From Candidatus Saccharimonadales bacterium (lineage in GTDB: Bacteria > Patescibacteriota > Saccharimonadia > Saccharimonadales > UBA4665), in contig DASVOI010000014.1 of the NCBI GenBank assembly GCA_036383395.1, forward strand, positions 329 to 64,328: DNA of 64,000 nt, given 5' to 3'. Under the pieces are notes generated by a model. The model saw only the letters and a program-made list of their open reading frames with translations, made no database searches and was not told the origin of the DNA. Below, piece after piece: positions 7,682 to 50,946 of the stretch. The position numbers were made by a program, and so were the translations under genes. The number at the start of each line of letters is the position of its first letter. Positions within the stretch are counted from its first letter, which is position 1.

Positions 7682-8547
7682 ATGGCGTCACGGCAGCAAA
7701 TTAAACGGCGTATCGGCTCTGTGCGCAACACGCGCCAGATTACCAAGGCTATGCAGCTGGTTGCCGCCAGCAAGCTGCGCCACGCCCAAGAAGCGGTGGT
7801 GCGCCCGCGCGACTACGCGCAGCTGGCCCGCGAGATTTTGACTCGTCTGCGTCAACTCGGCGCCGGCGAAAGCGAATTCAAGCTGTTTGCCGAACGGCCG
7901 GTGAAGCGCCGGCTTATTATCGCCATGACGAGTGACCTGGGACTGGCCGGCGCTTATGACGCCAACGTTGTCCGACAGCTGATCACCGAAGCCCAAGCCG
8001 ACCACGGCAAGGGTGTAAAGACCGCTGTAGTAGCCATTGGCCGCAAGGCCGCGCAGGCTGCCAGCCACATCGCCGGCCTCGAAGTGGAAGCCGTCTACAC
8101 CAAGATGCCCGACAAGCCCACTGCCGACGATCTGCGTCCGATTTTGAGCAGCATCGTGGCCAAGTTCGCCGACGGCGACGTCGACCAAGTCGACATCATC
8201 TTCACCAAGTTTGTTTCGAGCATTAGCCAGCAAGTCCAGCTGCAGCGTTTGCTGCCGGCCGGCTTTGAAGAGGCCGAGCTAAACGACGAGCTGGCGCACG
8301 CCGACGTCGAACCCGACGTGGGCAGCCTGCTGCGCGCCGCCGCGTTGCGCCTGCTGGAAGCCCAGATCTACCAGGCCTTTTTAGAGGCCGTGGCCTCTGA
8401 GCAGTCCATGCGTATGCTGGCCATGAAGAACGCCACTGACAACGCCAGCGACCTCATCGAGGACCTGACGCTGGAGTACAACAACGCCCGCCAGGCCGCG
8501 ATTACCCAAGAGCTGGCCGAAATTACCGGTGGTGCGGAGGCGTTGAA

Positions 8548-8551
<4 letters not shown>
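7682..8551 (+). CDS. atpG: ATP synthase F1 subunit gamma
   Basis: ITKAMQLVAASK and MKNATDNA...YNNARQAAITQELAEI. Confidence 0.99.
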
Positions 8552-10245
<1,694 letters not shown>

Positions 10246-33635: not shown

Positions 33636-34832
33636 TTATTTTTTGGCGCAGGTCGGGCAGATTTCGGCGTCGGATTCGCCCTTGCTGCGAATCCACTGGG
33701 CGCCGGCGGCCGGCCAGTTCTGCAGATCGTGGAAGCCAATGAGATCGACAAATACATGGATGAATCCGCCGAGCATGCCAGCGAAGGTTGCCTTGCCCCA
33801 CTCTACTGCGGCCCAGCGCGGCCCGACCGGAATAACGGAAATAGGCTTCTTGGGTGTGTAACTCTTGGGCGTCTTGCCGTCCAGCTTGCGGCAGATGTTT
33901 TGGGCCACGAATTCGGCATCGTACAGTGCAGTTTGGGCCATGCCGCTAAACGGTGTGTTGGCGTTGTCGCCCACGATGAAAATGTCTTGCTCGGTTTGCA
34001 GGTATTCATCGACTTCGACTTTGCCGCGGTCGGTCAGGCGGAAGTTATTCTCTTTAAAAAACGGGTTATTGGTTACGCCGGCCGTCCAGACAACGGTGCG
34101 GGTCTTGAGCGGCTTGTCGCCAGCCATGAGCATGTCGCCGGTTTGGCCGCCAACGGCGGTGCCAGTCATAACTTGGACGCCCAGATGGGTTAAGCGGCGC
34201 ATCACCGCTTGCTGGATGCTTTGCGGCGAGCGCGGCAGTAGCACCGGCGCCGCTTCTACGAGCATGATGTTCAGCTTGGTCTTGGGTACCCCGTGGCGTT
34301 TCATTACGCCGTTCAGATAACCTGGCAGCGCGCCGGCTAGTTCGATGCCGGTCGGGCCGCCGCCCACAATGACGTAGTTGAGATCGGGCGCGCCCTCTTT
34401 GGCGAATTGCTCGTGCACGTGCTTTTTGAAGCGCTCAACTTCCTCGGTCGACTTTATGCCGAAGGAGTACTCGGCCAGGCCCTTGATGCCGAAGTAGTTG
34501 GTGACATTACCCAGCCCCAAAATGAGCGTGTCGTACGGCAAGTGCTTGCCGTCTTCGGTGACAATTTCTTTTTTCTGACGGTCCACTTTGGTGACGGTGG
34601 CCCGTTCAAAGTGCACCTTGCGCCCTTCGAGAATAGTGCTCAACCGGATGCGCGAGCCGGCGCGCCGGCCGCCGGTAGCGGCGTGGTACAGCCCCGGATA
34701 GTACCGGAAATGGCCATGATCGCTCACCAGCGTGACGTCGCAGCTGTCGCAGCGGCTTAGCTCTAGCGCAGCTTTTACGCCGCCAAAGCCACCGCCCACG
34801 ATCAATATTTTTGTTTTTTGGGTTGTGCTCAT
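33636..34832 (-). CDS. ndh: Type II NADH:quinone oxidoreductase (NDH-2)-family flavoprotein
   Basis: VGGGFGG, IVGGGPTGIELAG, VWTAGV, VGD and MAQTA; ends with a CPTC motif. Confidence 0.85.
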   Translation of the reverse strand: MSTTQKTKILIVGGGFGGVKAALELSRCDSCDVTLVSDHGHFRYYPGLYHAATGGRRAGSRIRLSTILEGRKVHFERATVTKVDRQKKEIVTEDGKHLPYDTLILGLGNVTNYFGIKGLAEYSFGIKSTEEVERFKKHVHEQFAKEGAPDLNYVIVGGGPTGIELAGALPGYLNGVMKRHGVPKTKLNIMLVEAAPVLLPRSPQSIQQAVMRRLTHLGVQVMTGTAVGGQTGDMLMAGDKPLKTRTVVWTAGVTNNPFFKENNFRLTDRGKVEVDEYLQTEQDIFIVGDNANTPFSGMAQTALYDAEFVAQNICRKLDGKTPKSYTPKKPISVIPVGPRWAAVEWGKATFAGMLGGFIHVFVDLIGFHDLQNWPAAGAQWIRSKGESDAEICPTCAKK

Positions 34833-34871
34833 GGTTCGCATTATACAGCAAGCTTTCGGTGGAGCTAGTGC

Positions 34872-35887: not shown

Positions 35888-36874
35888 ATGAGTGTGCGCG
35901 TCGCCACATATAACCTCTTTGAAGGGGCTGGAGGGTCTTATAACCGCCTCGTCGAGTTCGTGCGGACATCCCAGCTGGATGTGATTTGTTTGCAAGAAAT
36001 TAACGGCTGGGAGGACAACGATTTCGCCCGCCTCAAAGATTTTACCGACAAGGTCTTGTTCGTGGGCTTTGCCTACGGCAACAGCAATACCGAATATAAA
36101 CTGGCGACCGTCAGCAAGCACGCCATTATCGACCGCAAGCTGCACGCCGAGGCCTTTTGGCACGCTGCCCTCGAAATTAAGGTGCGGCTGGGCGATCGCG
36201 ATGTAACCATCGTGAACGCCCATCTCGACCCGTGGAAAGAGGAATCGCGCGACCGCGAGATTGCTCGCCTGCTGTCCGGTTTGCAGCCTGGCCAGCCTAC
36301 GATCATCACCGGCGACTTCAACAGCCTGAGCCGCCAAGATAATTACCCGCCGGAGCTGCTCGCCCAGCTGCAAGCCAAAGGCATCAGCAAATTTGGCACG
36401 CAATCGCTGGAGCTCAGGGTGATCGATCGCCTGCTGGCTGCCGGCTATGTTGACGTGTTTGCGGCCGCCGGCCAATTCCAGCCCACGGTGCCGAGCGCCT
36501 TCAATCAGGACAAGGATCACGAGGTGCCAGTGCGCGTTGACTACATGTTTGTGTCGCCTGATTTGGCGCCGCTGGTGAGCAAGGTTGAACTCGCCAAGAC
36601 CGACTTGACCGACGCCATCTCCGATCATTACCCGCTGATCGTTACGTTTAACTTGGGCGAACCCGAGACCGGCACGAGTCCGACTAGTGCGGCGCCCGCC
36701 CCGGTGATGCCGCCGGCGCCCGTCCCTGCTCCTGTCGCGCCCAGCATTCCGGCCGCGCCCCCTACGCCGTGGGTGCCGCCAGAAGACCCGAAGCCGCAAG
36801 AACGGCCGCCAAAAAATGACGACAAACCCGATGATGGCGAAGTTGTTATGTGGTCTCACGACGACAAAAAATAA
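35888..36874 (+). CDS. Endonuclease/exonuclease/phosphatase (EEP) family protein with Pro-rich tail
   Basis: TYNL, CLQE, AHL, TGDFN, RVDYMF and SDHYP. Confidence 0.9.
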   Translation: MSVRVATYNLFEGAGGSYNRLVEFVRTSQLDVICLQEINGWEDNDFARLKDFTDKVLFVGFAYGNSNTEYKLATVSKHAIIDRKLHAEAFWHAALEIKVRLGDRDVTIVNAHLDPWKEESRDREIARLLSGLQPGQPTIITGDFNSLSRQDNYPPELLAQLQAKGISKFGTQSLELRVIDRLLAAGYVDVFAAAGQFQPTVPSAFNQDKDHEVPVRVDYMFVSPDLAPLVSKVELAKTDLTDAISDHYPLIVTFNLGEPETGTSPTSAAPAPVMPPAPVPAPVAPSIPAAPPTPWVPPEDPKPQERPPKNDDKPDDGEVVMWSHDDKK

Positions 36875-36938
36875 AAATCTTAAAAAATGGTAATGAAATC
36901 TATATTTACTTCGGCCAGGTAGTGGTAGAATATACCGC

Positions 36939-38144
36939 ATGGCTAAAGATCTGACCCAGTTGCAGATTCGTTCTCTGCCTGAGGTCTTTAACTTTACCGA
37001 TGGTCATGTTCATAGGTCTCTTGATGAAAACGAGCGTAAGGTGGCGGAACGACTCAGTGACATCTTCCTCAGTGTAGAGCGTGAACGCCAATCGGAAGTA
37101 GAGCGTGCATACGTGGACGCTTTTTATGGCATGTACCGCCAAACTATCAATGCTGACAAGACCAAGTACTTATTCCTATCGAGCGCTTCGCTCAGCCTCG
37201 AGGTAACCGCCAACTATGTCCGTATGGCTGGCCTGGATCTGGCGCTGATTGAGCCGTGCTTTGACAATCTCGCCAATATGTTTAAGCGCCACAAAGTGCC
37301 GTTGGAATCCTTGCCTGACCACTACCTTGAGGCCGAAAATATCGACGAGCTGTTGCCGACTATCAAGAGCAAGGCCATATGTATTGTGTCGCCCAACAAT
37401 CCTACCGGCATTACTTACACGCCAGAAATTTTTAAAAAGTTGGTTGACTTCTGCAAGCGTGAGCACCGCCTGCTGATCATCGACTCGTCGTTCCGCGCCT
37501 ACAAAGACCCCGACTTCATCTTCGACGAATATGGGCTGTTGCAAGAAAGCGGCATCGATTATATCCTCATCGAAGACACCGGTAAGACCTGGCCGACGAA
37601 AGAGCTAAAAGTATCGTTGCTGGCCGTTTCCAGCAACATTTACAAGGATGTGTTCGACATCTACACCGATTTTTTGTATCACCACTCCACCGTCGTAGTG
37701 CGGTTTTTAACAGAATTTATTAAAGTGTCGGCCGCCGACAACCTGAAGACCGCGAAAGGCGTAGTCGCCACCAACCGGCGTGCGCTGTACCAGGCACTCG
37801 AGGGCAGCTTCCTGACGCCGCGCGAAAAAGGCTTTACGAGTGTTGCCTGGCTCAAGATCACGAACGGCATGAGGGCCGATGCCCTTTGCGCACTTCTAAA
37901 AGCAAACGGTATTTTTGTGCTGCCCGGCCAGCATTTTTACTGGAATGGCGGCACCGACCAAGACGGTAATGGCGGCGATTGTTACATTCGCGTCGCCCTG
38001 GCCCGCGACACCGACAAATTCAACCGCGCTCTGGTGCGGCTTAAAGAGGTCTTTGCCCAGGTGGCCGAGCCCGAGCCGGCCGAGTTAGGGAGTGCGCGCC
38101 AGTTCCCAGTAGTGGGTGAACATTTGGCGGAAGGTCTGAGCTAG
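36939..38144 (+). CDS. Fold-type I PLP enzyme, MppP/RohP/Ind4-like arginine oxidase homolog
   Basis: LTQ..., N.TDGH, PCFDNLA, PNNPTG, DSSFR, IEDTGKTWPTKELK (PLP Lys), LPGQHFYW and IRVALAR align with the remembered MppP sequence. Confidence 0.78.
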   Translation: MAKDLTQLQIRSLPEVFNFTDGHVHRSLDENERKVAERLSDIFLSVERERQSEVERAYVDAFYGMYRQTINADKTKYLFLSSASLSLEVTANYVRMAGLDLALIEPCFDNLANMFKRHKVPLESLPDHYLEAENIDELLPTIKSKAICIVSPNNPTGITYTPEIFKKLVDFCKREHRLLIIDSSFRAYKDPDFIFDEYGLLQESGIDYILIEDTGKTWPTKELKVSLLAVSSNIYKDVFDIYTDFLYHHSTVVVRFLTEFIKVSAADNLKTAKGVVATNRRALYQALEGSFLTPREKGFTSVAWLKITNGMRADALCALLKANGIFVLPGQHFYWNGGTDQDGNGGDCYIRVALARDTDKFNRALVRLKEVFAQVAEPEPAELGSARQFPVVGEHLAEGLS

Positions 38145-38858
38145 CGTTTCGTTCACGATTTCGACGCCGACCTTTTGCTGGTGGCGCCAATGGTAGATGG
38201 CAACGGTATCGTTATAGGTGGTGATCTGATTTTCGAGCAGCAGCTCGTCCGGCGTGAGCACGCGGAACTGATAGTTTGTGGCAAACGTGAAGATTTTGCT
38301 GTCCTCGCCGGGGTTTACCAGTACGCGCACCGATTGGTCGTTGTAGTTGGCTTGCGCCATGCGTTCTTGGTGTTGGCTAATCCAGCGCTGGCTGGTAATG
38401 AGGTCGCGCAAACTGGCGCGGCCAAACATCAGGATTTCGCCGCGAGTTTTTAGCTCGTGCCACAGCATTTGCTTGAACCCTTCTTCGCCTTCGTAGGTAT
38501 GCACAATAAAACTGCTGGCGTCATTGTCTTTTAGTAGATTTAACACCGGCAGCAGGCTTTCAAAGGCCTGGCGCTTTTGTTTGACGTTCTCTTCTTCGGT
38601 CACTAGCTCTACCTCAAGCGTGGCCGGATCGGAGGCGATCAGAAATGTACCGCGGTCGTCAGTGCGAGTACTCACCAGGCTGCGTTTTTCCAGCTGGTCG
38701 GCCAATCGGTACACTTTACTGCGATTAATGCCGGTGGAACGCGCCAGTTTTAGGTGCGTTGCCGGGCCTTTTAGTAGCTCGAGATAGATATGCGCTTCGT
38801 CGGCGCTTAAATTCAAGGCCTTCAGTCGCTGCAAGATCATGTCCTTGTTGTTCGTCAT
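38085..38858 (-). CDS. TrmB-family HTH transcriptional regulator with C-terminal effector-binding (PLD-like) domain
   Basis: EAHIYLELL...LARSTGINRSKVYRLADQLEKRSLV, YEGEEG and ITTYNDTVAI. Confidence 0.85.
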   Translation of the reverse strand: MTNNKDMILQRLKALNLSADEAHIYLELLKGPATHLKLARSTGINRSKVYRLADQLEKRSLVSTRTDDRGTFLIASDPATLEVELVTEEENVKQKRQAFESLLPVLNLLKDNDASSFIVHTYEGEEGFKQMLWHELKTRGEILMFGRASLRDLITSQRWISQHQERMAQANYNDQSVRVLVNPGEDSKIFTFATNYQFRVLTPDELLLENQITTYNDTVAIYHWRHQQKVGVEIVNETLAQTFRQMFTHYWELARTP

Positions 38859-38954
38859 GGTGAACAATTTAGCACATTATGTTCCGTTCATAAATACTGA
38901 ACATGTAAACACATTAAAAGCTAAGTCATTAAATAACGGTCTCGGGAGGCCCTT

Positions 38955-39230
38955 ATGAGGAACGTAGAAGTCATGGAAGTGCGAGCGATGCTCAAGGAAA
39001 TTTTGGCAACTACGGGTGGGACGCCCGAAGATGTGAGCGCCGTTATGACCATCGGGACGCCGGCAATGGGATTGCAGCGTTTGAGCGGCCCGAAGGAGCT
39101 TGCGCCGGTGCTGAAGGCGGTTGAACACGCCTCGCCGGCCAGCGAAGGTACCATTCGTATTGAAGAGGGTACCTGGCGCCAACTGGAGTCGGCCTACAGC
39201 CGCAGCGTGGTGGAGCCGCTGTTCGCCTAA
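38955..39230 (+). CDS. Hypothetical protein
   Basis: 91 aa; SD GGGAGG; followed by a terminator. Confidence 0.55.
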   Translation: MRNVEVMEVRAMLKEILATTGGTPEDVSAVMTIGTPAMGLQRLSGPKELAPVLKAVEHASPASEGTIRIEEGTWRQLESAYSRSVVEPLFA

Positions 39231-39253
39231 AAAGCACGACAAGAGAAAGATAC

Positions 39254-39290
39254 AAATCACGGGCCCATGACTGGCCCGTGATTTTGTTTT
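39254..39290 (+). terminator. Intrinsic terminator
   Basis: AAATCACGGGCC-7 nt-GGCCCGTGATTT followed by TGTTTT. Confidence 0.8.
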
Positions 39291-39320
39291 GATGCTATAT
39301 TTGACTGATAAGGAGCATGC

Positions 39321-40328
39321 ATGAAAGTTTCGTTTTCTGAAGTTGTCCGTAAATACAAAGAAGTACTGGCCACATCCGGTGCGAGCCAGGAAGACATTGA
39401 CGCCGTGGCGACGCTGAATTTAGAGCAAGATCTGCACCACAATTTTTTTTCTGGGCTGGACGAAGTAAATTTGGCACTGGACACGCTGCGCGAATCGAAA
39501 GGCAAGAAACACAAGGTCGAGGTAGACAAGCCGGCTCTGAAACTAGTGAATTGTAACGGCCGCGATGAGGGCCTGGTGAGCTTGGAGCTTATCCCCCTGC
39601 TCTGCGATATGGCGCGCGGGCAAGGTATTGCTATTATTGGCCTCTACAACGGTGGCTATCAGAGTATGCCCGAGGTATTTGCCCGGCTAATTGCCGCCGA
39701 GGACTTGGTTGGACTGGTCTCTGGCACGGGCGGCCCACAAAGCGTGGTGCCCTACGGCGGCAAAAAAGATATTATGGGCACGAACCCATTTGCCTACGGC
39801 ATCCCCACTAACGACATGCCTATTGTCTTCGACGCAGCGACCGCCAAGTACCCCTGGGGCAGTATCCGCATCGCCGGTGAACGCGGTGACACGTTGCCGG
39901 AACGTTCATATCTGGACAAAGAGGGCAACTGGACCACCGACCCGTCCGTGGCTGTGGCGATCGTTCCTTTTGGCGAACATCGTGGCTACGCCATAAATCT
40001 GTTGCTGGAAGTGATGGCCGGCGCGCTCGTGCGTGCTAAGTCCGGTTTGCTGCAAAAAGAAGAGGCCGACATGGGCGGCTTCCTCATTGCGATTGACCCG
40101 GCCGCCTTTGGGCCGCTCGACGACTTTAAAGCGCAAACCACCAAACTGGCCCAAGACATTGAGGCCGTGGAGCCGGCCGAGGGCTTCAGCGAAGTGCGCG
40201 TGCCCGGCTACAAGGGCCAGCGCTACAAGCAGCATGTGCTCGAAACGGACGAAATCGAAATCGAAGACCGCGTCTGGCAAAAGTTTGAAGCGGTATATAA
40301 AGAATTAGTTAAAAAGGATGGTAACTAA
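39321..40328 (+). CDS. Ldh_2 (type 2 malate/L-lactate dehydrogenase; AllD/DpkA/ComC-like) oxidoreductase, divergent
   Basis: PYGG....GTNPFAYGIP, FDAAT, GYAINLLLEVMAG, IAIDP and VRVPG; SD AAGGAG. Confidence 0.85.
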   Translation: MKVSFSEVVRKYKEVLATSGASQEDIDAVATLNLEQDLHHNFFSGLDEVNLALDTLRESKGKKHKVEVDKPALKLVNCNGRDEGLVSLELIPLLCDMARGQGIAIIGLYNGGYQSMPEVFARLIAAEDLVGLVSGTGGPQSVVPYGGKKDIMGTNPFAYGIPTNDMPIVFDAATAKYPWGSIRIAGERGDTLPERSYLDKEGNWTTDPSVAVAIVPFGEHRGYAINLLLEVMAGALVRAKSGLLQKEEADMGGFLIAIDPAAFGPLDDFKAQTTKLAQDIEAVEPAEGFSEVRVPGYKGQRYKQHVLETDEIEIEDRVWQKFEAVYKELVKKDGN

Positions 40329-40801
40329 TGGGCACTTTCGATAAACACCTACTGGCCGACACTATCGCCCGCACCGAATTTGTTATAGACGACGGTCCGT
40401 ACGTGCTGGCTAGCTTGCCGCTCGACGAGTACGCCAAGGCCGCCCGGCTCATAGCCGAAGCGAGCGACCCGTATATGCAAATTATCCGCGACAGTTCTGA
40501 GGTGTCGGTCATCGTGACCCAGGCAACCTGGGAAGCGGTGTTTGTGCCGGCGTTTGGCGAGCGGCCTATGTTGGCCCCTCTTTCTGAGGTTTTTTGCAAG
40601 GTTGACGAAACCTGCACCGGCTACTTGCTGACCATTCTGGACCGGCTGTCGCCGAATAATGTTGGGGTGTATGTGCAGGGCGCCTATGTCACCGACCACA
40701 TATTCATCCACAGCGAGGATACCGAAAAAGCCAAGCAGCTGCTAGCCGATCTTCAGGCCGATATGCGCGATGCTCTTGCACACACACCAGAGAATGCTTA
40801 A
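40328..40801 (+). CDS. Tandem-ACT domain protein (CASTOR/ACT_7-like)
   Basis: QIIRDSSEVSVI and GYLLTILDRL..NNVGVYVQGAYVTDHIFI...D.EKA match the ACT_7 pattern; TAATG coupling to the Ldh_2 gene. Confidence 0.65.
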   Translation: MGTFDKHLLADTIARTEFVIDDGPYVLASLPLDEYAKAARLIAEASDPYMQIIRDSSEVSVIVTQATWEAVFVPAFGERPMLAPLSEVFCKVDETCTGYLLTILDRLSPNNVGVYVQGAYVTDHIFIHSEDTEKAKQLLADLQADMRDALAHTPENA

Positions 40802-40810
40802 GCTTAAAGC

Positions 40811-42475
40811 ATGGATGATTTTAAGCAGCAGTTAGCCGCTGCCGGGTTTAGCGGCGAGATCGATGACAGCGCCGAAACGACCCAGTTTTACAGCCACGAC
40901 GCTTCCCTGTTCGAGGTGGTGCCGCAGCTGGTGGTGATGCCCAAAACCAGCGCCGACGTGCAAAAGCTCATTAAGCTAGTGGCCGACCACAAAAAGCACA
41001 TGCCCGGGTTGTCGGTTACGGCGCGCTCAGCCGGCACCGACATGTCCGGCGGCGCGGTTAACGATAGCGTCATTGTTGATTTCAACAAGCACTTCACCAA
41101 AATTGAAAACGTGACTTCTACCGAAGCCCACGCCCAGCCCGGTGTGTTTTACCGCGACTTTGAAGCAGAAACGCTAAAGCACGACGCGCTGATGCCGAGC
41201 TATCCGGCGTCGCGCGATCTCTGTACCATCGGCGGCATGGTCAACAACAACTCCGGCGGCGAGAAATCGTTAGAATACGGCAAGACCGAAAATTTTGTGA
41301 AGGAACTAAAGGTCGTGTTCGCCGATGGCAACGAATATACCGTTAAGCCCTTAAACCGCCGCGAGCTGGTGGCCAAAATGGGGCAAAAGACGTTTGAGGG
41401 CCAGCTGTACAAGCGACTGTTTGAGCTGTGCGAAAAACATTATGACAAGATTAAGGCCGCCAAGCCGAACGTGTCCAAAAACTCTATGGGCTACAATCTG
41501 TGGGACGTCTGGGACCGCGACAGCGGCGTGTTTAACATGGAGAAATTGATTGTGGGCAGCCAGGGCACGCTGGGCTTTACTACCGACATCAAGTTTAAGC
41601 TGGTGCCGCACCGTCCGCACTCCGGCTTGCTGGTGCTGTTTTTGCGCGATATCGACGCGTTGGGCCAGATTATCCCCAGGGTGCTCGAGTACAAGCCGGC
41701 GACCATGGAATGCTTCGACGACGCTACGCTGTTGCTGACGATCAGGTTTATGCCGTACTTCCTCAAAATGCTTGGGCTCAAAAAGTTCATTCACCTGCTG
41801 TTTAGCTTGATACCTGACGGCTTCCAGCTGCTGCGCGGTATCCCCAAAATGATTCTGATGGTAGAGTTCAACGGCCAAACCGAAGACGAAGTGCGCGAGC
41901 AGATTAAAGCGCTGCACCGCGACCTAAAGCAGTACCACGCCCGCTACGAAATTAACGGATTCGAAGAAGACGCCACTGAAGGTAAAAGCGAGAAGTTTTG
42001 GATTATGCGCCGCCACGCCTTCAACTTGCTGCGCAAAAAAGTCAAAGACAAGCACACCGCGCCGTTCATCGACGATCTGGTGGTGAACCCCGAGTATCTG
42101 ACCGAATTTCTGCCCCGCTTGCGCAAGATCGTGAAGAAGTACAAGCTGCTGGCCACCATTCAGGGCCACATGGGCGACGGCAACTTCCACATCATTCCAC
42201 TCATGAAGATCGAGGAGAAAAAGGAGCGCGCCAAGCTGCTGCCGGCTATGAAAGAGGTGGATACGCTGGTTTTGAAGTACAAAGGTTCGCTGAGCGGCGA
42301 GCACAACGACGGTCTGGTCCGCGGGCCATGGCTAGAGGAGCAGTTCGGCCGCGAAGTGCTTGGCTATTTCAAAGAGGTGAAGCACATTTTTGACCCGGAA
42401 AATATCTTTAACCCGCACAAAAAGTCTGACGCCGACTGGGACTACAGCTTTTCGCACATTCGCGAGCACTTTTAG
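40811..42475 (+). CDS. FAD-linked oxidoreductase (D-lactate dehydrogenase/GlcD, VAO/PCMH family)
   Basis: RSAGTDMSG, TIGGMVNNNSGG, GSQGTLG, GHMGDGNFH, SGEHNDG and DPENIFNP; own promoter TTGCAC-17-TAAGCT (40776-40804). Confidence 0.9.
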   Translation: MDDFKQQLAAAGFSGEIDDSAETTQFYSHDASLFEVVPQLVVMPKTSADVQKLIKLVADHKKHMPGLSVTARSAGTDMSGGAVNDSVIVDFNKHFTKIENVTSTEAHAQPGVFYRDFEAETLKHDALMPSYPASRDLCTIGGMVNNNSGGEKSLEYGKTENFVKELKVVFADGNEYTVKPLNRRELVAKMGQKTFEGQLYKRLFELCEKHYDKIKAAKPNVSKNSMGYNLWDVWDRDSGVFNMEKLIVGSQGTLGFTTDIKFKLVPHRPHSGLLVLFLRDIDALGQIIPRVLEYKPATMECFDDATLLLTIRFMPYFLKMLGLKKFIHLLFSLIPDGFQLLRGIPKMILMVEFNGQTEDEVREQIKALHRDLKQYHARYEINGFEEDATEGKSEKFWIMRRHAFNLLRKKVKDKHTAPFIDDLVVNPEYLTEFLPRLRKIVKKYKLLATIQGHMGDGNFHIIPLMKIEEKKERAKLLPAMKEVDTLVLKYKGSLSGEHNDGLVRGPWLEEQFGREVLGYFKEVKHIFDPENIFNPHKKSDADWDYSFSHIREHF

Positions 42476-48634: not shown

Positions 48635-48729
48635 AGGCGTTGCATAACGCGCTATAATGCAGCTATGACCGCTATTGCTGTAATATCTTTGACTGTTTCG
48701 CGGGAATGCTGAGGCCATACTTGTCGCAA

Positions 48730-50946
48730 ATGGGAGACACGCGAGGCACTGCACACAAACGTTCTTTTGTTATTGTATCTAATCGCCTGCCGGTTAACGT
48801 GACCAAGGAGAATGGTAAGCTGAGCTTTAACCCGAGCAGCGGCGGTTTGGCTACGGCTATGTCTTCGGCGGCTATGGGACGTGAGCACATCTGGCTGGGC
48901 TGGCCGGGTATAGCGTCGGATGACCTGACGGCGGCCGACAAGCGGCTCATTACCCGCGAGCTGCGCAAATACGACTGCGCGCCGGTGTTTTTGAGCAAGA
49001 AGCAAATCGCGGGCTACTACGACGGCTACGCCAACGCCACCATTTGGCCGCTGTTCCACTATTTTCAGAATCACGCCGTGTACCAGTCGACCTACTGGGA
49101 GCCGTACAAAGAAGTAAGCCGGGTGTTTGCGCGCGCCGTGCAGCGGCATGCCGCGCCGGACGCCACCATTTGGGTGCACGACTATCACTTTATGCTGTTG
49201 CCGCGCATGCTGCGCAAGGAGCTGCCAGAAAGCAGTATTGGTTTTTTCTTGCATATCCCCTTCCCGTCGTACGAAATTTTCCGGGTGCTGCCGCAGCGCG
49301 CCGAGATTTTGCGCGGCCTGCTGGGCGCCGACCTGGTCGGCTTCCATACCTACGATTACACTCGTCATTTTATGAGCAGCGTGCTGCACGTGCTGGGGTA
49401 CGAGACCAAGTTGGGGCTGGTACAGACCAACACGCGCGAGATTATGGCCGACGCCTTCCCAATAGGCATCGACTACGACAAATTCGTGCGTGCGCTGAGT
49501 GACCCGGCCGTGCAAGAAGAGACCGAACGGCTGCGCGAACACTACGAGGGCAAGAAGCTGATTATATCGGTGGACCGGCTGGATTACTCCAAGGGGATTG
49601 TCGGCCGGCTGGAAGCGTTCGACCAGTTTTTGGAGCGCCGGCCGAAATACCACGGCAAGGTGTCGCTGGTGGTTGTGGCCGTGCCGTCGCGCATCGATGT
49701 CGACGCTTACAAGCAACTGCGCGATACCATCGAACTCACTGTGAGCCGCATTAACGGCAAGTATGCGACCATGGCGTGGTCGCCTATATCGTATCAATTT
49801 AAGAATTTGCCGTTTGAACAGATTGTGGCTTTGTATGTTGCCGCTGATGTGGCGCTGGTAACGCCCTTGCGCGACGGCATGAATCTGGTTTCTAAAGAGT
49901 ATGTTGCCAGCAAGCAGAAACGGCCGGGCGTGCTCATTTTGAGCGAAATGGCAGGCGCGGCCAACGAACTGCCAGAGGCAATCCGGGTGAATCCGTATGA
50001 TGGCGCTGACATCGGGCGGGCACTCGAAACGGCGCTCAAGATGCCGGTTGCGCAGCAGCGGCGGGCCATGCAGGCGATGCAGGCGCGGATCTCACGCTAT
50101 TCGGTGACGCGCTGGGCGCAAGACTTTATCGAGCAACTCGGCCGTGCCAAGGCGGCAACCGCCAGCATGAATGCCCAGCCGCTTAGCGGCGACGCCCAGC
50201 GCGAGCTTATGAACGCATATAAGTCCACCAAAAAACGGCTGTTTTTGCTTGACTACGACGGCACCCTGCGCGACTATGTGTCTCCCGTCTCCAAAGACCA
50301 GGCGCGCCCTGGCCGGCGGTTACTGGGAAAATTGGCGGCGCTGTCGGCCGACCCTAAAAACCATATCTGCATCATTAGCGGCCGCACCCGCAGCACCTTG
50401 CAGAGTTGGTTTGGCTCGTTGCCGGTAACTCTGGTGGCCGAGCACGGCGCCTGGGTACGCAAAAAGGGCGAATGGCACCACGCCCAAGTCGACTTCCAAA
50501 AAGTAAAAGACATCTTGCTGCCAATCCTCACCGGCTACGCCGAGCGCACGCCCGGGACCACGGTAGAAGAAAAAGACTTTGCCCTGGTGTGGCACTACCG
50601 CGGTGTGACGCCCGAGCTGGCCTACGTGCGCAAGGTGGGCTTAAAACACGACATCACCGTGGCATTATCAGGCAAAGATGCCGATGTTGGCGTATTTGAG
50701 GGCAACAAGATTTTGGAAATAAAGCCGCGCTCTATTAGCAAGGGCGGCATCGCTAAGGAATTACTCGACCAGACGGACGCTGATTTTGTGCTATCCGCCG
50801 GCGACGATTATACCGACGAAGATATGTTTACCGCCCTGCCCTCTACGGCGTGGACTCTCAAGGTTGGGCCGGGCAACACAAGCGCACGCAATCATATCGG
50901 CTCGGTAGAGGAGATGATTGCGCTGCTTGGCCGCTTGTATTCGTAG
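48730..50946 (+). CDS. Bifunctional trehalose-6-phosphate synthase/phosphatase (OtsA-OtsB fusion)
   Basis: VSNRLP, WVHDYH, FLHIPFP, DRLDYSKG and LRDGMNLV; HAD motifs DYDGTL and GDDYTDEDMF; exact start uncertain (48706-48730). Confidence 0.95.
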   Translation: MGDTRGTAHKRSFVIVSNRLPVNVTKENGKLSFNPSSGGLATAMSSAAMGREHIWLGWPGIASDDLTAADKRLITRELRKYDCAPVFLSKKQIAGYYDGYANATIWPLFHYFQNHAVYQSTYWEPYKEVSRVFARAVQRHAAPDATIWVHDYHFMLLPRMLRKELPESSIGFFLHIPFPSYEIFRVLPQRAEILRGLLGADLVGFHTYDYTRHFMSSVLHVLGYETKLGLVQTNTREIMADAFPIGIDYDKFVRALSDPAVQEETERLREHYEGKKLIISVDRLDYSKGIVGRLEAFDQFLERRPKYHGKVSLVVVAVPSRIDVDAYKQLRDTIELTVSRINGKYATMAWSPISYQFKNLPFEQIVALYVAADVALVTPLRDGMNLVSKEYVASKQKRPGVLILSEMAGAANELPEAIRVNPYDGADIGRALETALKMPVAQQRRAMQAMQARISRYSVTRWAQDFIEQLGRAKAATASMNAQPLSGDAQRELMNAYKSTKKRLFLLDYDGTLRDYVSPVSKDQARPGRRLLGKLAALSADPKNHICIISGRTRSTLQSWFGSLPVTLVAEHGAWVRKKGEWHHAQVDFQKVKDILLPILTGYAERTPGTTVEEKDFALVWHYRGVTPELAYVRKVGLKHDITVALSGKDADVGVFEGNKILEIKPRSISKGGIAKELLDQTDADFVLSAGDDYTDEDMFTALPSTAWTLKVGPGNTSARNHIGSVEEMIALLGRLYS

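Follow-up and report, generated by a model that had tools for sequence, protein, structure and literature searches.

The window analysed here (64,000 nucleotides, all of one stretch of a contig from a Candidatus Saccharimonadales bacterium, a member of the candidate phyla radiation, CPR) carries within 5.5 kb six open reading frames (ORFs). They encode a pyridoxal 5'-phosphate (PLP)-dependent oxidase related to RohP and MppP, a TrmB-family regulator, a protein of 91 amino acids (aa; its gene is called orf91 below), an Ldh_2-family dehydrogenase, a tandem-ACT protein and a flavin adenine dinucleotide (FAD)-linked dehydrogenase (Table 1). An earlier note on this DNA had proposed that all of these except orf91, which it set aside as an orphan, make up one module for sensing and oxidising arginine. 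The ORFs themselves, the overlap of the Ldh_2 stop with the ACT start (TAATG at 40325-40329), the hairpin at 39254 and the family assignments were all verified at the positions that it had given. The interpretation is another matter: the stretch is, we think it probable, a mosaic of four separately transcribed units and not one arginine pathway. It lies, in a soil Saccharimonadales genome, within a variable interval that is bounded by two core genes of respiratory type, those of NDH-2 (33636-34841) and of the FAD dehydrogenase.

Table 1. Genes and predicted regulatory features of the 5.5-kb stretch (positions in the window)
Feature	Position	Strand	Remarks
RohP/MppP-family oxidase gene	36939-38144	+	ORF of 401 aa; Aminotran_1_2
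TrmB-family regulator gene	38085-38867	-	ORF of 260 aa
orf91, 91-aa protein gene (the earlier 'orphan')	38955-39230	+	conserved ORF
Ldh_2 'type A' dehydrogenase gene	39321-40328	+	ORF of 335 aa; AAGGAG ribosome-binding site
Tandem-ACT protein gene	40328-40801	+	ORF of 157 aa
FAD dehydrogenase gene	40811-42475	+	ORF of 554 aa; FAD_binding_4 + FAD-oxidase_C
Extended -10 element of the oxidase gene (TGgTAGAAT)	36923..36931	+	7 nucleotides 5' of the ATG; kept across loci
Inverted repeat ATGTTC-N14-GAACAT	38879..38904		no strand; in the divergent TrmB/orf91 promoter region; candidate operator
Intrinsic-terminator-like hairpin	39254..39284	+	12-bp stem and T-rich tail; predicted to end the orf91 transcript
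FAD gene promoter TTGCAC-N17-TAAGCT	40776..40804	+	followed by 6 nucleotides to the ATG; kept across loci

A variable interval between core genes

Of the relatives compared, L002-L005 come from the scan of a genome collection described below and L086-L093 from a TrmB-based metagenome scan; L082-L085 and L094-L100 are contigs encoding homologues of the oxidase, the ACT protein or the FAD enzyme. The relatives of the oxidase and of the FAD enzyme carry the source labels Candidatus Saccharimonadales or Patescibacteria. The backbone of the interval consists of a UvrD-like helicase, NDH-2, then either YihY with an EEP nuclease or a CofD/NTP-transferase fusion, followed by the oxidase (+), TrmB (-), the 91-aa gene (+), a variable slot and the FAD gene (+). 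In 14 oxidase-bearing lineages TrmB adjoins the oxidase wherever that part is covered, and the 91-aa gene is present wherever the contig reaches; TrmB also occurs without the oxidase (L098, L090, L092). One of these oxidase-free loci, L098, has a TrmB orthologue (56% identical) and, divergent from it, an apparent operon whose last two genes, 12 bp apart, are an A-like Ldh_2 gene and the FAD gene; to judge from this arrangement, a link between TrmB, Ldh_2 and the FAD enzyme may be older than the arrival of the oxidase. (The EEP-family nuclease/phosphatase at 35888-36874, 5' of the oxidase in the window, carries at its C-terminus a long tail rich in Pro and Ala; it is found in oxidase-bearing loci of the YihY type and not in L100, which is without the oxidase.)

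The loci differ in what fills the slot between orf91 and the FAD gene. It is empty in L003, L004, L087, L094 and L096, and holds a methyltransferase gene in L095, a type B Ldh_2 gene in L097, a type A Ldh_2 gene on the opposite strand in L002, an amino-acid permease gene with a fragment of a type C Ldh_2 gene in L086, and ORFs of unknown kind in L005 and L088; only in the window and the near-identical strain L082 is it occupied by a type A Ldh_2 gene and an ACT gene. (A 157-aa ORF in the slot of L005 was checked as an ACT homologue and is not one.)

The FAD enzyme, which bounds the slot on its far side, is assembled from FAD_binding_4 (98 bits) and FAD-oxidase_C (148.5 bits), the two domains that it shares with GlcD, D-lactate dehydrogenase and the N-terminal half of the D-2-hydroxyglutarate dehydrogenase YdiJ. 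That half of YdiJ is its best NCBIfam match (274 bits, below every equivalog cut-off), and its PDB matches are LctD, glycolate oxidase, D-LDH (D-lactate dehydrogenase) and D2HGDH. It exceeds GlcD-type enzymes in length (554 aa) and is unusually conserved across Saccharimonadales: over 120 protein clusters are at least 75% identical to it, and almost all of them have precisely this length (for comparison, about 35 clusters of the oxidase at 48% identity or above, and 7 of the ACT protein). L098, L099 and L100, all without the oxidase, have the gene at 76-82% identity, and in the last two of these none of the other five genes of the stretch is present. This abundance, and the presence of the gene without the others, mark it by sequence as a core gene for a VAO/PCMH-type FAD-linked 2-hydroxyacid dehydrogenase.

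The FAD gene also appears to have a promoter of its own: of the 17 loci compared, most have CTTGC[GA]-N17-TAAGCT-N6-ATG, L099 and L100 among them (L098 differs), and it persists where the oxidase, TrmB and Ldh_2 genes are missing; the transcript is probably leaderless. In the window this promoter lies intact within the last codons of the ACT gene, whose stop codon doubles as the first triplet of the -10 hexamer; this accounts for the few extra residues that the window's ACT protein has over its homologues. At the other edge of the slot a hairpin with a T-tail follows orf91 in the empty-slot loci (L094, L003, L087, L004, L096), and the hairpin of the window is similar in sequence to the ones in L003 and L087. 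Because the terminator and the FAD promoter at its edges recur in relatives that are without it, the Ldh_2-ACT cassette is read here as an insertion between the two. (A technical note: a generic scan for σ70 promoters and terminators found sites no more frequently than in shuffled sequence, and the promoters reported here are based on conservation across loci and not on that scan.) The reservations that the earlier note had attached to its own proposal, namely separate promoters, a terminator and an FAD oxidase that might be a core gene, have all been borne out.

Comparison with L082 adds a further sign of mobility. The flanks of the cassette are 93-100% identical in the two strains (orf91 100%, TrmB 99.6%, the oxidase 97% and the FAD enzyme 93%) and Ldh_2 (L082:6918-7925) only 81.5%, a discrepancy that suggests recombinational replacement within the cassette. 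The ACT gene stands directly 3' of a type A Ldh_2 gene, with a 1-nucleotide overlap or a gap of 2-3 nucleotides, in each of the five contexts in which it was found: the window; L082, with the window's arrangement; L083, which reads Ldh_2-ACT-Ldh_2-HAD; L084, in which a CofD/NTP-transferase gene is followed by Ldh_2-ACT-Ldh_2; and L085, with Ldh_2-ACT. No oxidase, TrmB or FAD gene is in view in the last three. (The gene 3' of the second Ldh_2 gene in L084 was checked as an oxidase candidate and is not an oxidase.)

The putative arginine oxidase and its homologues

The assignment of the PLP enzyme to the MppP/RohP family stands. Its Pfam match is the general Aminotran_1_2 domain; its top NCBIfam match is MppP (TIGR04462), at 142 bits against an equivalog cut-off of 450 bits, which is not reached, and by that measure it is not an enduracididine-pathway orthologue. 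The top PDB matches are 6c3a (232 bits, residues 4-371), 7n79 (175 bits) and MppP itself (5dj1, 152 bits); the score against 6c3a rises to 352 bits with a profile of 25 oxidase homologues, and ordinary aminotransferases reach at most 39 bits in the same comparison. The PDB molecule names of the first two are uninformative; we take 6c3a to be one of the RohP entries (6c3a-d) and 7n79 to be Plu4.

Residues were mapped by aligning the window protein and 24 homologues to RohP, Plu4 and MppP. The Schiff-base lysine is Lys216, in an EDTGKTWP motif (MppP K221, RohP K235), and a second lysine is Lys224 (MilM K240); both are invariant across the 25 homologues. The catalytic histidine is His23, in a DGH motif (MppP H29, RohP H34, MilM H31); the threonine of the N-terminal lid helix (Thr6, MppP T12) and the arginine of the carboxylate clamp (Arg351, MppP R352) are retained; and Asp21, Ser84, Phe108, Asn110, Asn154 and Asp182 are conserved as well. 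One residue departs from the pattern: the position of MppP Glu15 and MilM Glu17 is taken by glutamine (Gln9) in the window oxidase and its six closest homologues, and by glutamate in all 18 other aligned sequences. The MilM variants T14A, E17A and N118A form only the oxo product, E17A about 1.9-fold faster, and MppP T12A and E15A are reported to act likewise, with hydroxylation abolished (10.64898/2026.02.25.707955). Since the glutamate required for hydroxylation is replaced by Gln9, 2-ketoarginine is predicted as the end product: the Gln9 subclade is most likely a two-electron arginine oxidase yielding 2-ketoarginine, NH3 and H2O2. The retained residues thus support a genuine PLP/O2 L-arginine oxidase of the RohP/MppP family, not a proven hydroxylase.

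How close is the window enzyme to the characterised ones? With RohP, MilM, MppP and Plu4 it shares the fold-type I scaffold, alignment over the full length, the lysine of the EDTGKTWP motif, the catalytic histidine, the Thr6 lid helix and the Arg351 clamp, and RohP is the nearest of the four (232 bits). It differs from them in sequence (identity of about 45% or less), in having Gln9 instead of the hydroxylation glutamate, and in setting: the RohP/MppP types sit in biosynthetic clusters, while the window oxidase sits without one, beside TrmB, in a reduced CPR genome of about 1 Mb. The RohP/MppP types are PLP/O2-dependent L-arginine oxidases; for the window enzyme the same activity is a prediction. 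The window contains no mpp or roh partner genes, that is, no equivalents of MppQ/R, RohQ/R/S or Ind5/6; tblastn with an HMGL-like aldolase, a haem-oxygenase-like oxidase (HDO), DUF6190, a D-isomer 2-hydroxyacid dehydrogenase (2-Hacid_dh), an FAA hydrolase and TauD found nothing in it; and no arginine-catabolic gene is among 20 further large window ORFs annotated with Pfam. PLP/O2 arginine oxidases have to our knowledge been characterised only within natural-product pathways (enduracididine, azomycin, indolmycin, mildiomycin), and a literature search found no link between them and the Saccharibacteria or Patescibacteria.

The extended -10 arrangement GTGGTAGAATA-N5-6-ATG is kept 5' of the oxidase gene in 10 related loci, and the oxidase transcript, too, is probably leaderless. 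The oxidase and TrmB genes are convergent and overlap by 60 bp (38085-38144); relatives show overlaps of 4-94 bp. The window oxidase has a C-terminal extension (401 aa, as against 370-392 aa in most relatives).

The neighbourhoods of oxidase homologues were surveyed more widely by a scan of a genome collection that yielded 80 loci, with neighbours within 8 kb examined by tblastn (1e-5) and phmmer (1e-3). The gene order of the window recurs in only four of these, L002-L005, all Saccharimonadia-type, and the flanks are better conserved there than the oxidase: 50-57% identity for the oxidase, 64-72% for TrmB and 72-88% for the FAD enzyme. At the 76 other loci (Dehalococcoidia, Streptomyces, Paenibacillus, cyanobacteria, other CPR and so on) no Ldh_2, ACT, FAD-oxidase or clear TrmB gene lies within 8 kb, the sole tblastn exception being a 27%-identity TrmB-like match in L013.

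Some of these loci have companions of other kinds. In other CPR (Patescibacteria, Andersenbacteria, Peribacteria) the oxidase homologue is accompanied by a gene for a haem-oxygenase-like oxidase, a DUF6190 gene or both (L033:7947-10509, L032:7983-9933, L016:361-2169, L021:7329-9137); in L033 the three genes form one apparent operon. Genes of these two families also flank the oxidase at many loci of actinomycetes. The azomycin-pathway enzyme RohS is haem-oxygenase-like (PMC13133933), and by analogy these CPR loci may be azomycin-like clusters.

Regulator, small protein and the Ldh_2-ACT pair

The winged helix of the TrmB protein is recognised by PF01978 (37 bits against a cut-off of 25.6 bits, residues 15-70); the remainder (residues ~90-260), where a sugar-binding effector domain would be expected, has no Pfam or PDB match and is highly conserved among orthologues. 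These are 62-83% identical and occupy the same position in each oxidase-bearing relative in which that side of the contig is covered. The intergenic region between TrmB and orf91 is strongly conserved across loci and contains an inverted repeat, ATGTTC-N14-GAACAT, that occurs once in the 64-kb window (0.04 copies would be expected by chance) and is a candidate operator for TrmB. A copy of it was sought 5' of the oxidase, the Ldh_2 gene and the FAD gene, and none was found, which speaks against the view that TrmB governs the stretch as one regulon. Two observations on TrmB may be added. On one short contig (L090:984-1961) the gene convergent with that of a TrmB of 50% identity encodes not the PLP oxidase but a FAD_binding_2 flavoprotein. 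In the window a gene for a fused trehalose-6-phosphate synthase/phosphatase (Glyco_transf_20 + Trehalose_PPase, 48706-50946) lies about 10 kb from the TrmB gene; archaeal TrmB proteins sense trehalose and maltose.

Is orf91 a gene at all? Its product is exactly 91 aa long at 13 related loci, and the ratio of nonsynonymous to synonymous substitution rates (dN/dS) is 0.06-0.24, with synonymous sites near saturation. It is under purifying selection; the term 'orphan' does not suit it, and the idea of a spurious ORF was dropped on these grounds. Its affinities are with the type A Ldh_2 protein: BLAST between the two gives matches at Ldh_2 residues 3-32 (E 7e-6) and 266-330 (E 1e-3), and hhalign of the N-terminus against Ldh_2 gives E 4e-5 and a probability of 70%, for the N-terminus only. 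The likeness involves the first ~30 residues and the C-terminal part, where it is clearest in the last ~25, so that orf91 looks like an Ldh_2 protein from which the middle ~230 residues have been deleted: a lead, not a demonstration. A phmmer search of 1.84 billion representatives returned about 13 small homologues and matched no full-length Ldh_2 protein, and a single-sequence model (mean predicted local distance difference test score, pLDDT, 71.5) has no significant fold match in the PDB.

The Ldh_2 protein of the window matches its Pfam family over the full length (212 bits, residues 3-321), and its cofactor residues GTNP (153-156), Asp171 and Arg221 align with Thr156, Pro158, Asp174 and Lys224 of AllD. 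Its nearest relatives are the type-2 malate/lactate dehydrogenase (MDH/LDH; 1vbi), ComC (2x06) and AllD. The scores, 97-111 bits to 2-hydroxyacid dehydrogenases against 78 bits to the imine reductase DpkA, led us to drop the designation 'DpkA-like imine reductase'. The full-length match and the GTNP, Asp and Lys/Arg cofactor residues are shared with ComC, AllD, type-2 MDH/LDH, DpkA and YiaK; unlike these enzymes, the window protein is paired with an ACT subunit and has Tyr113 in place of His116. Of His44 and His116 (AllD numbering), both reported to be invariant in the family, one is the catalytic acid/base, and His116 is the residue described as catalytic (PMC3527362). The His116 position is Tyr in type A, that of the window, and Thr in types B and C; the His44 position in the window protein is Phe, with His39 and His40 3-4 residues upstream, and the SHG..R motif is not alignable. 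The three Saccharimonadia types (A, window 39321-40328; B, L097:10325-11317; C, L084:10507-11499) are about 30% identical to one another, and all keep the GTNP and Asp cofactor motifs without His116. Since that histidine is replaced in all three, the reaction class of the window enzyme is less certain than its family name suggests.

The ACT protein scores 26.0 bits against ACT_7, just below the 27-bit cut-off. Its predicted structure (pLDDT 82.6) has two ACT-like units in a tandem βαββαβ fold and finds its best fold matches in VC0802 (1zvp) and Atu0741 (1zhv), followed by aspartokinase regulatory domains (Foldseek E 1e-6 to 1e-4), of which more than 40 chains match at E < 1e-3. CASTOR1 (5gv2) comes only at rank 42 (E 7e-4), and it has four ACT domains in two tandem pairs (~330 aa), with its arginine pocket at the ACT2/ACT4 interface, as against two units in 157 aa. 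The suggestion of a CASTOR-like arginine sensor was therefore abandoned: the protein is, by its model, an aspartokinase-regulatory-type tandem ACT, not specifically CASTOR-like, and nothing in it points to arginine as the ligand. It has few homologues, 7 clusters among 5.8 billion proteins. Like aspartokinase β subunits, VC0802 and Atu0741, it is a small separate polypeptide with a predicted tandem-ACT fold; like the β subunits, it is encoded by a gene that adjoins, and is translationally coupled with, the gene of an enzyme; unlike theirs, its partner is an Ldh_2 dehydrogenase and not a kinase. The coupling of the two genes that the earlier note had pointed out is confirmed and is conserved, and by analogy the ACT protein is probably a small regulatory subunit dedicated to the Ldh_2 enzyme.

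Four units or one pathway

The units of this stretch are distributed independently of one another: all four partner families of the oxidase are absent from its 76 outside loci, Ldh_2-ACT stands alone in three contexts, the FAD gene does so in L099 and L100, and the slot is variable. The five-gene 'arginine-sensing module' is mostly not supported by this distribution and should not be carried forward as a unit. What would the four units do? 1) A stand-alone enzyme of the RohP/MppP family would oxidise L-arginine with PLP and O2, stopping at 2-ketoarginine, NH3 and H2O2. 2) TrmB, as repressor or activator, would bind the repeat between its own gene and orf91 and thereby control a short monocistronic orf91 transcript and itself; the TrmB/orf91 pair travels with the oxidase. 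3) The inserted cassette would provide a divergent NAD(P)H-dependent 2-oxoacid/2-hydroxyacid dehydrogenase of the Ldh_2 family, together with a tandem-ACT subunit that would be made stoichiometrically by translational coupling and would render the enzyme responsive to a metabolite, as aspartokinase β subunits do. 4) The FAD-linked 2-hydroxyacid dehydrogenase would be a housekeeping enzyme, read from its own promoter. In this scheme the anatomy of the stretch, the families of its proteins and the independent distribution of the units have been shown, and we infer the substrates, the target of TrmB and the complex of the ACT protein with Ldh_2.

Several things weigh against so complete a separation. 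Ldh_2 paralogues of the three types are present at the locus in 6 of the 14 oxidase lineages, at three positions, and in L088 and L089 the oxidase gene is immediately preceded by a co-oriented type B Ldh_2 gene. Two loci (L088:7602-8723 and L091:8759-9883) have at the oxidase position, beside TrmB, a protein of a second MppP-family lineage that is 27-30% identical to the window's, is closest to MppP and keeps T12, E15, H29 and the lysine; by its sequence the oxidase has been replaced in situ, and the occurrence of two divergent lineages at one position suggests that selection keeps an oxidase there. Outside the CPR, a 2-Hacid_dh gene stands directly 3' of the oxidase homologue at 16 loci, most of them in Paenibacillus, the others in Cohnella, Alicyclobacillus, Paractinoplanes and one Streptomyces (L019, at 8001-10081, L022, L024, L029-L031, L039, L041, L042, L045, L050, L055, L058, L064, L078 and L080). 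A reductase beside an arginine-oxidase homologue is the very logic that the earlier note had proposed, and to judge from these gene pairs it exists in nature; the reductase is of another family than that of the window, directly adjacent to the oxidase, co-oriented with it and uncharacterised, and the setting is probably secondary metabolism. There are also limits of the material. All of the synteny was observed in a single lineage, whose loci were found with oxidase, TrmB and ACT sequences as queries, so that the counts are biased; the promoters and terminators are consensus-level predictions; and a search for expression data matched the window sequence only to DNA metagenomes, from soil and groundwater.

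The first alternative to be considered gives these observations their due. In it the Ldh_2 paralogue of the locus would reduce 2-ketoarginine to 2-hydroxy-5-guanidinovalerate, detoxifying the keto acid or regenerating NAD+, in the window under the control of ACT, and TrmB and the FAD dehydrogenase would not necessarily be involved. The paralogues at 6 of 14 oxidase loci, with the upstream, co-oriented genes of L088 and L089, favour it, as do the Ldh_2-like termini of the 91-aa protein, whose gene is the oxidase's constant companion, and the 16 oxidase/2-Hacid_dh pairs described above. E. coli GhrA, a generic reductase, is reported to turn over 2-ketoarginine efficiently (bioRxiv 10.1101/2022.04.02.486822). 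Against it, 8 of the 14 oxidase lineages have no Ldh_2 gene at the locus; Ldh_2 genes are also found in this interval at the oxidase-free loci L084 and L098, the latter an A-like copy, and the type A gene with ACT occurs in three oxidase-free contexts; Ldh_2 and the oxidase are set apart by 124-169 bp of intergenic sequence or by a terminator; and the absence of His116 from all three types leaves the reaction class uncertain. The recurrent paralogues and the 2-Hacid_dh pairs leave some room for a coupling of oxidase and reductase; we regard it as unlikely in the form just given.

A more ambitious scheme is more doubtful still, and we would call it improbable. In some soil Saccharimonadales the arginine oxidase, an enzyme type of antibiotic pathways, would have been recruited to core physiology, converting host arginine to 2-ketoarginine, NH3 and H2O2; the keto and hydroxy acids would be cycled as a redox shuttle by the His116-less Ldh_2 paralogues, one of them ACT-regulated, and the FAD dehydrogenase; and the oxidase/TrmB/91-aa block would be an exchangeable control unit.

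The favoured reading takes for granted that arginine is the substrate of the PLP enzyme. Might the protein instead act in vivo on another amino acid (a neutral arginine analogue, for example), or be an ordinary aminotransferase? One could cite its 142 bits, far under the 450-bit MppP cut-off, the fixation of Gln9 within the subclade together with the absence of pathway partners, and the fact that the CPR members of the family are known from their sequences alone. The retention of EDTGKTWP, the Thr6 lid helix, His23 and all PLP- and carboxylate-binding residues makes this quite improbable: the four characterised arginine oxidases are by far the best matches, ordinary aminotransferases scoring no more than 39 bits, and the loss of the glutamate is no obstacle to arginine oxidation, of which the MilM E-to-A variant (and reportedly that of MppP) is still capable, the MilM E17A enzyme being the faster one (10.64898/2026.02.25.707955).

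The full module, in which the oxidase would make keto- or imino-arginine, Ldh_2 would reduce it to a hydroxy or amino product, the FAD oxidase would re-oxidise that product, and ACT and TrmB would sense arginine-related ligands, has in its favour the presence of every gene within 5.5 kb, the co-directional Ldh_2, ACT and FAD genes with gaps of 0 and 9 bp, and the divergent TrmB and apparent Ldh_2-FAD operon of L098, a link that may be old, but it is very improbable indeed, since that older arrangement is oxidase-free, the FAD gene is a core gene with its own promoter in most loci compared, the Ldh_2-ACT cassette is an insertion that is found alone elsewhere, no operator copy lies 5' of the oxidase, Ldh_2 or FAD gene, the ACT fold gives no sign of arginine specificity, and none of the 76 outside oxidase loci shares the neighbourhood.

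With the stretch resolved into four probable units, two of its components deserve to be followed up: the Ldh_2-ACT pair and the CPR arginine oxidase with its Glu-to-Gln change. The first would be the only instance so far of an allosteric small subunit proposed for the Ldh_2 dehydrogenase family. The second is a stand-alone arginine oxidase conserved in a lineage of reduced-genome episymbionts, in which a natural replacement of glutamate by glutamine should convert a hydroxylase to a plain arginine oxidase that releases H2O2 and NH3; it would offer a test, already set up by nature, of the residue on which the product depends. If this proves to be true, these organisms would possess an O2-dependent means to use, or to weaponise, the arginine of their hosts.

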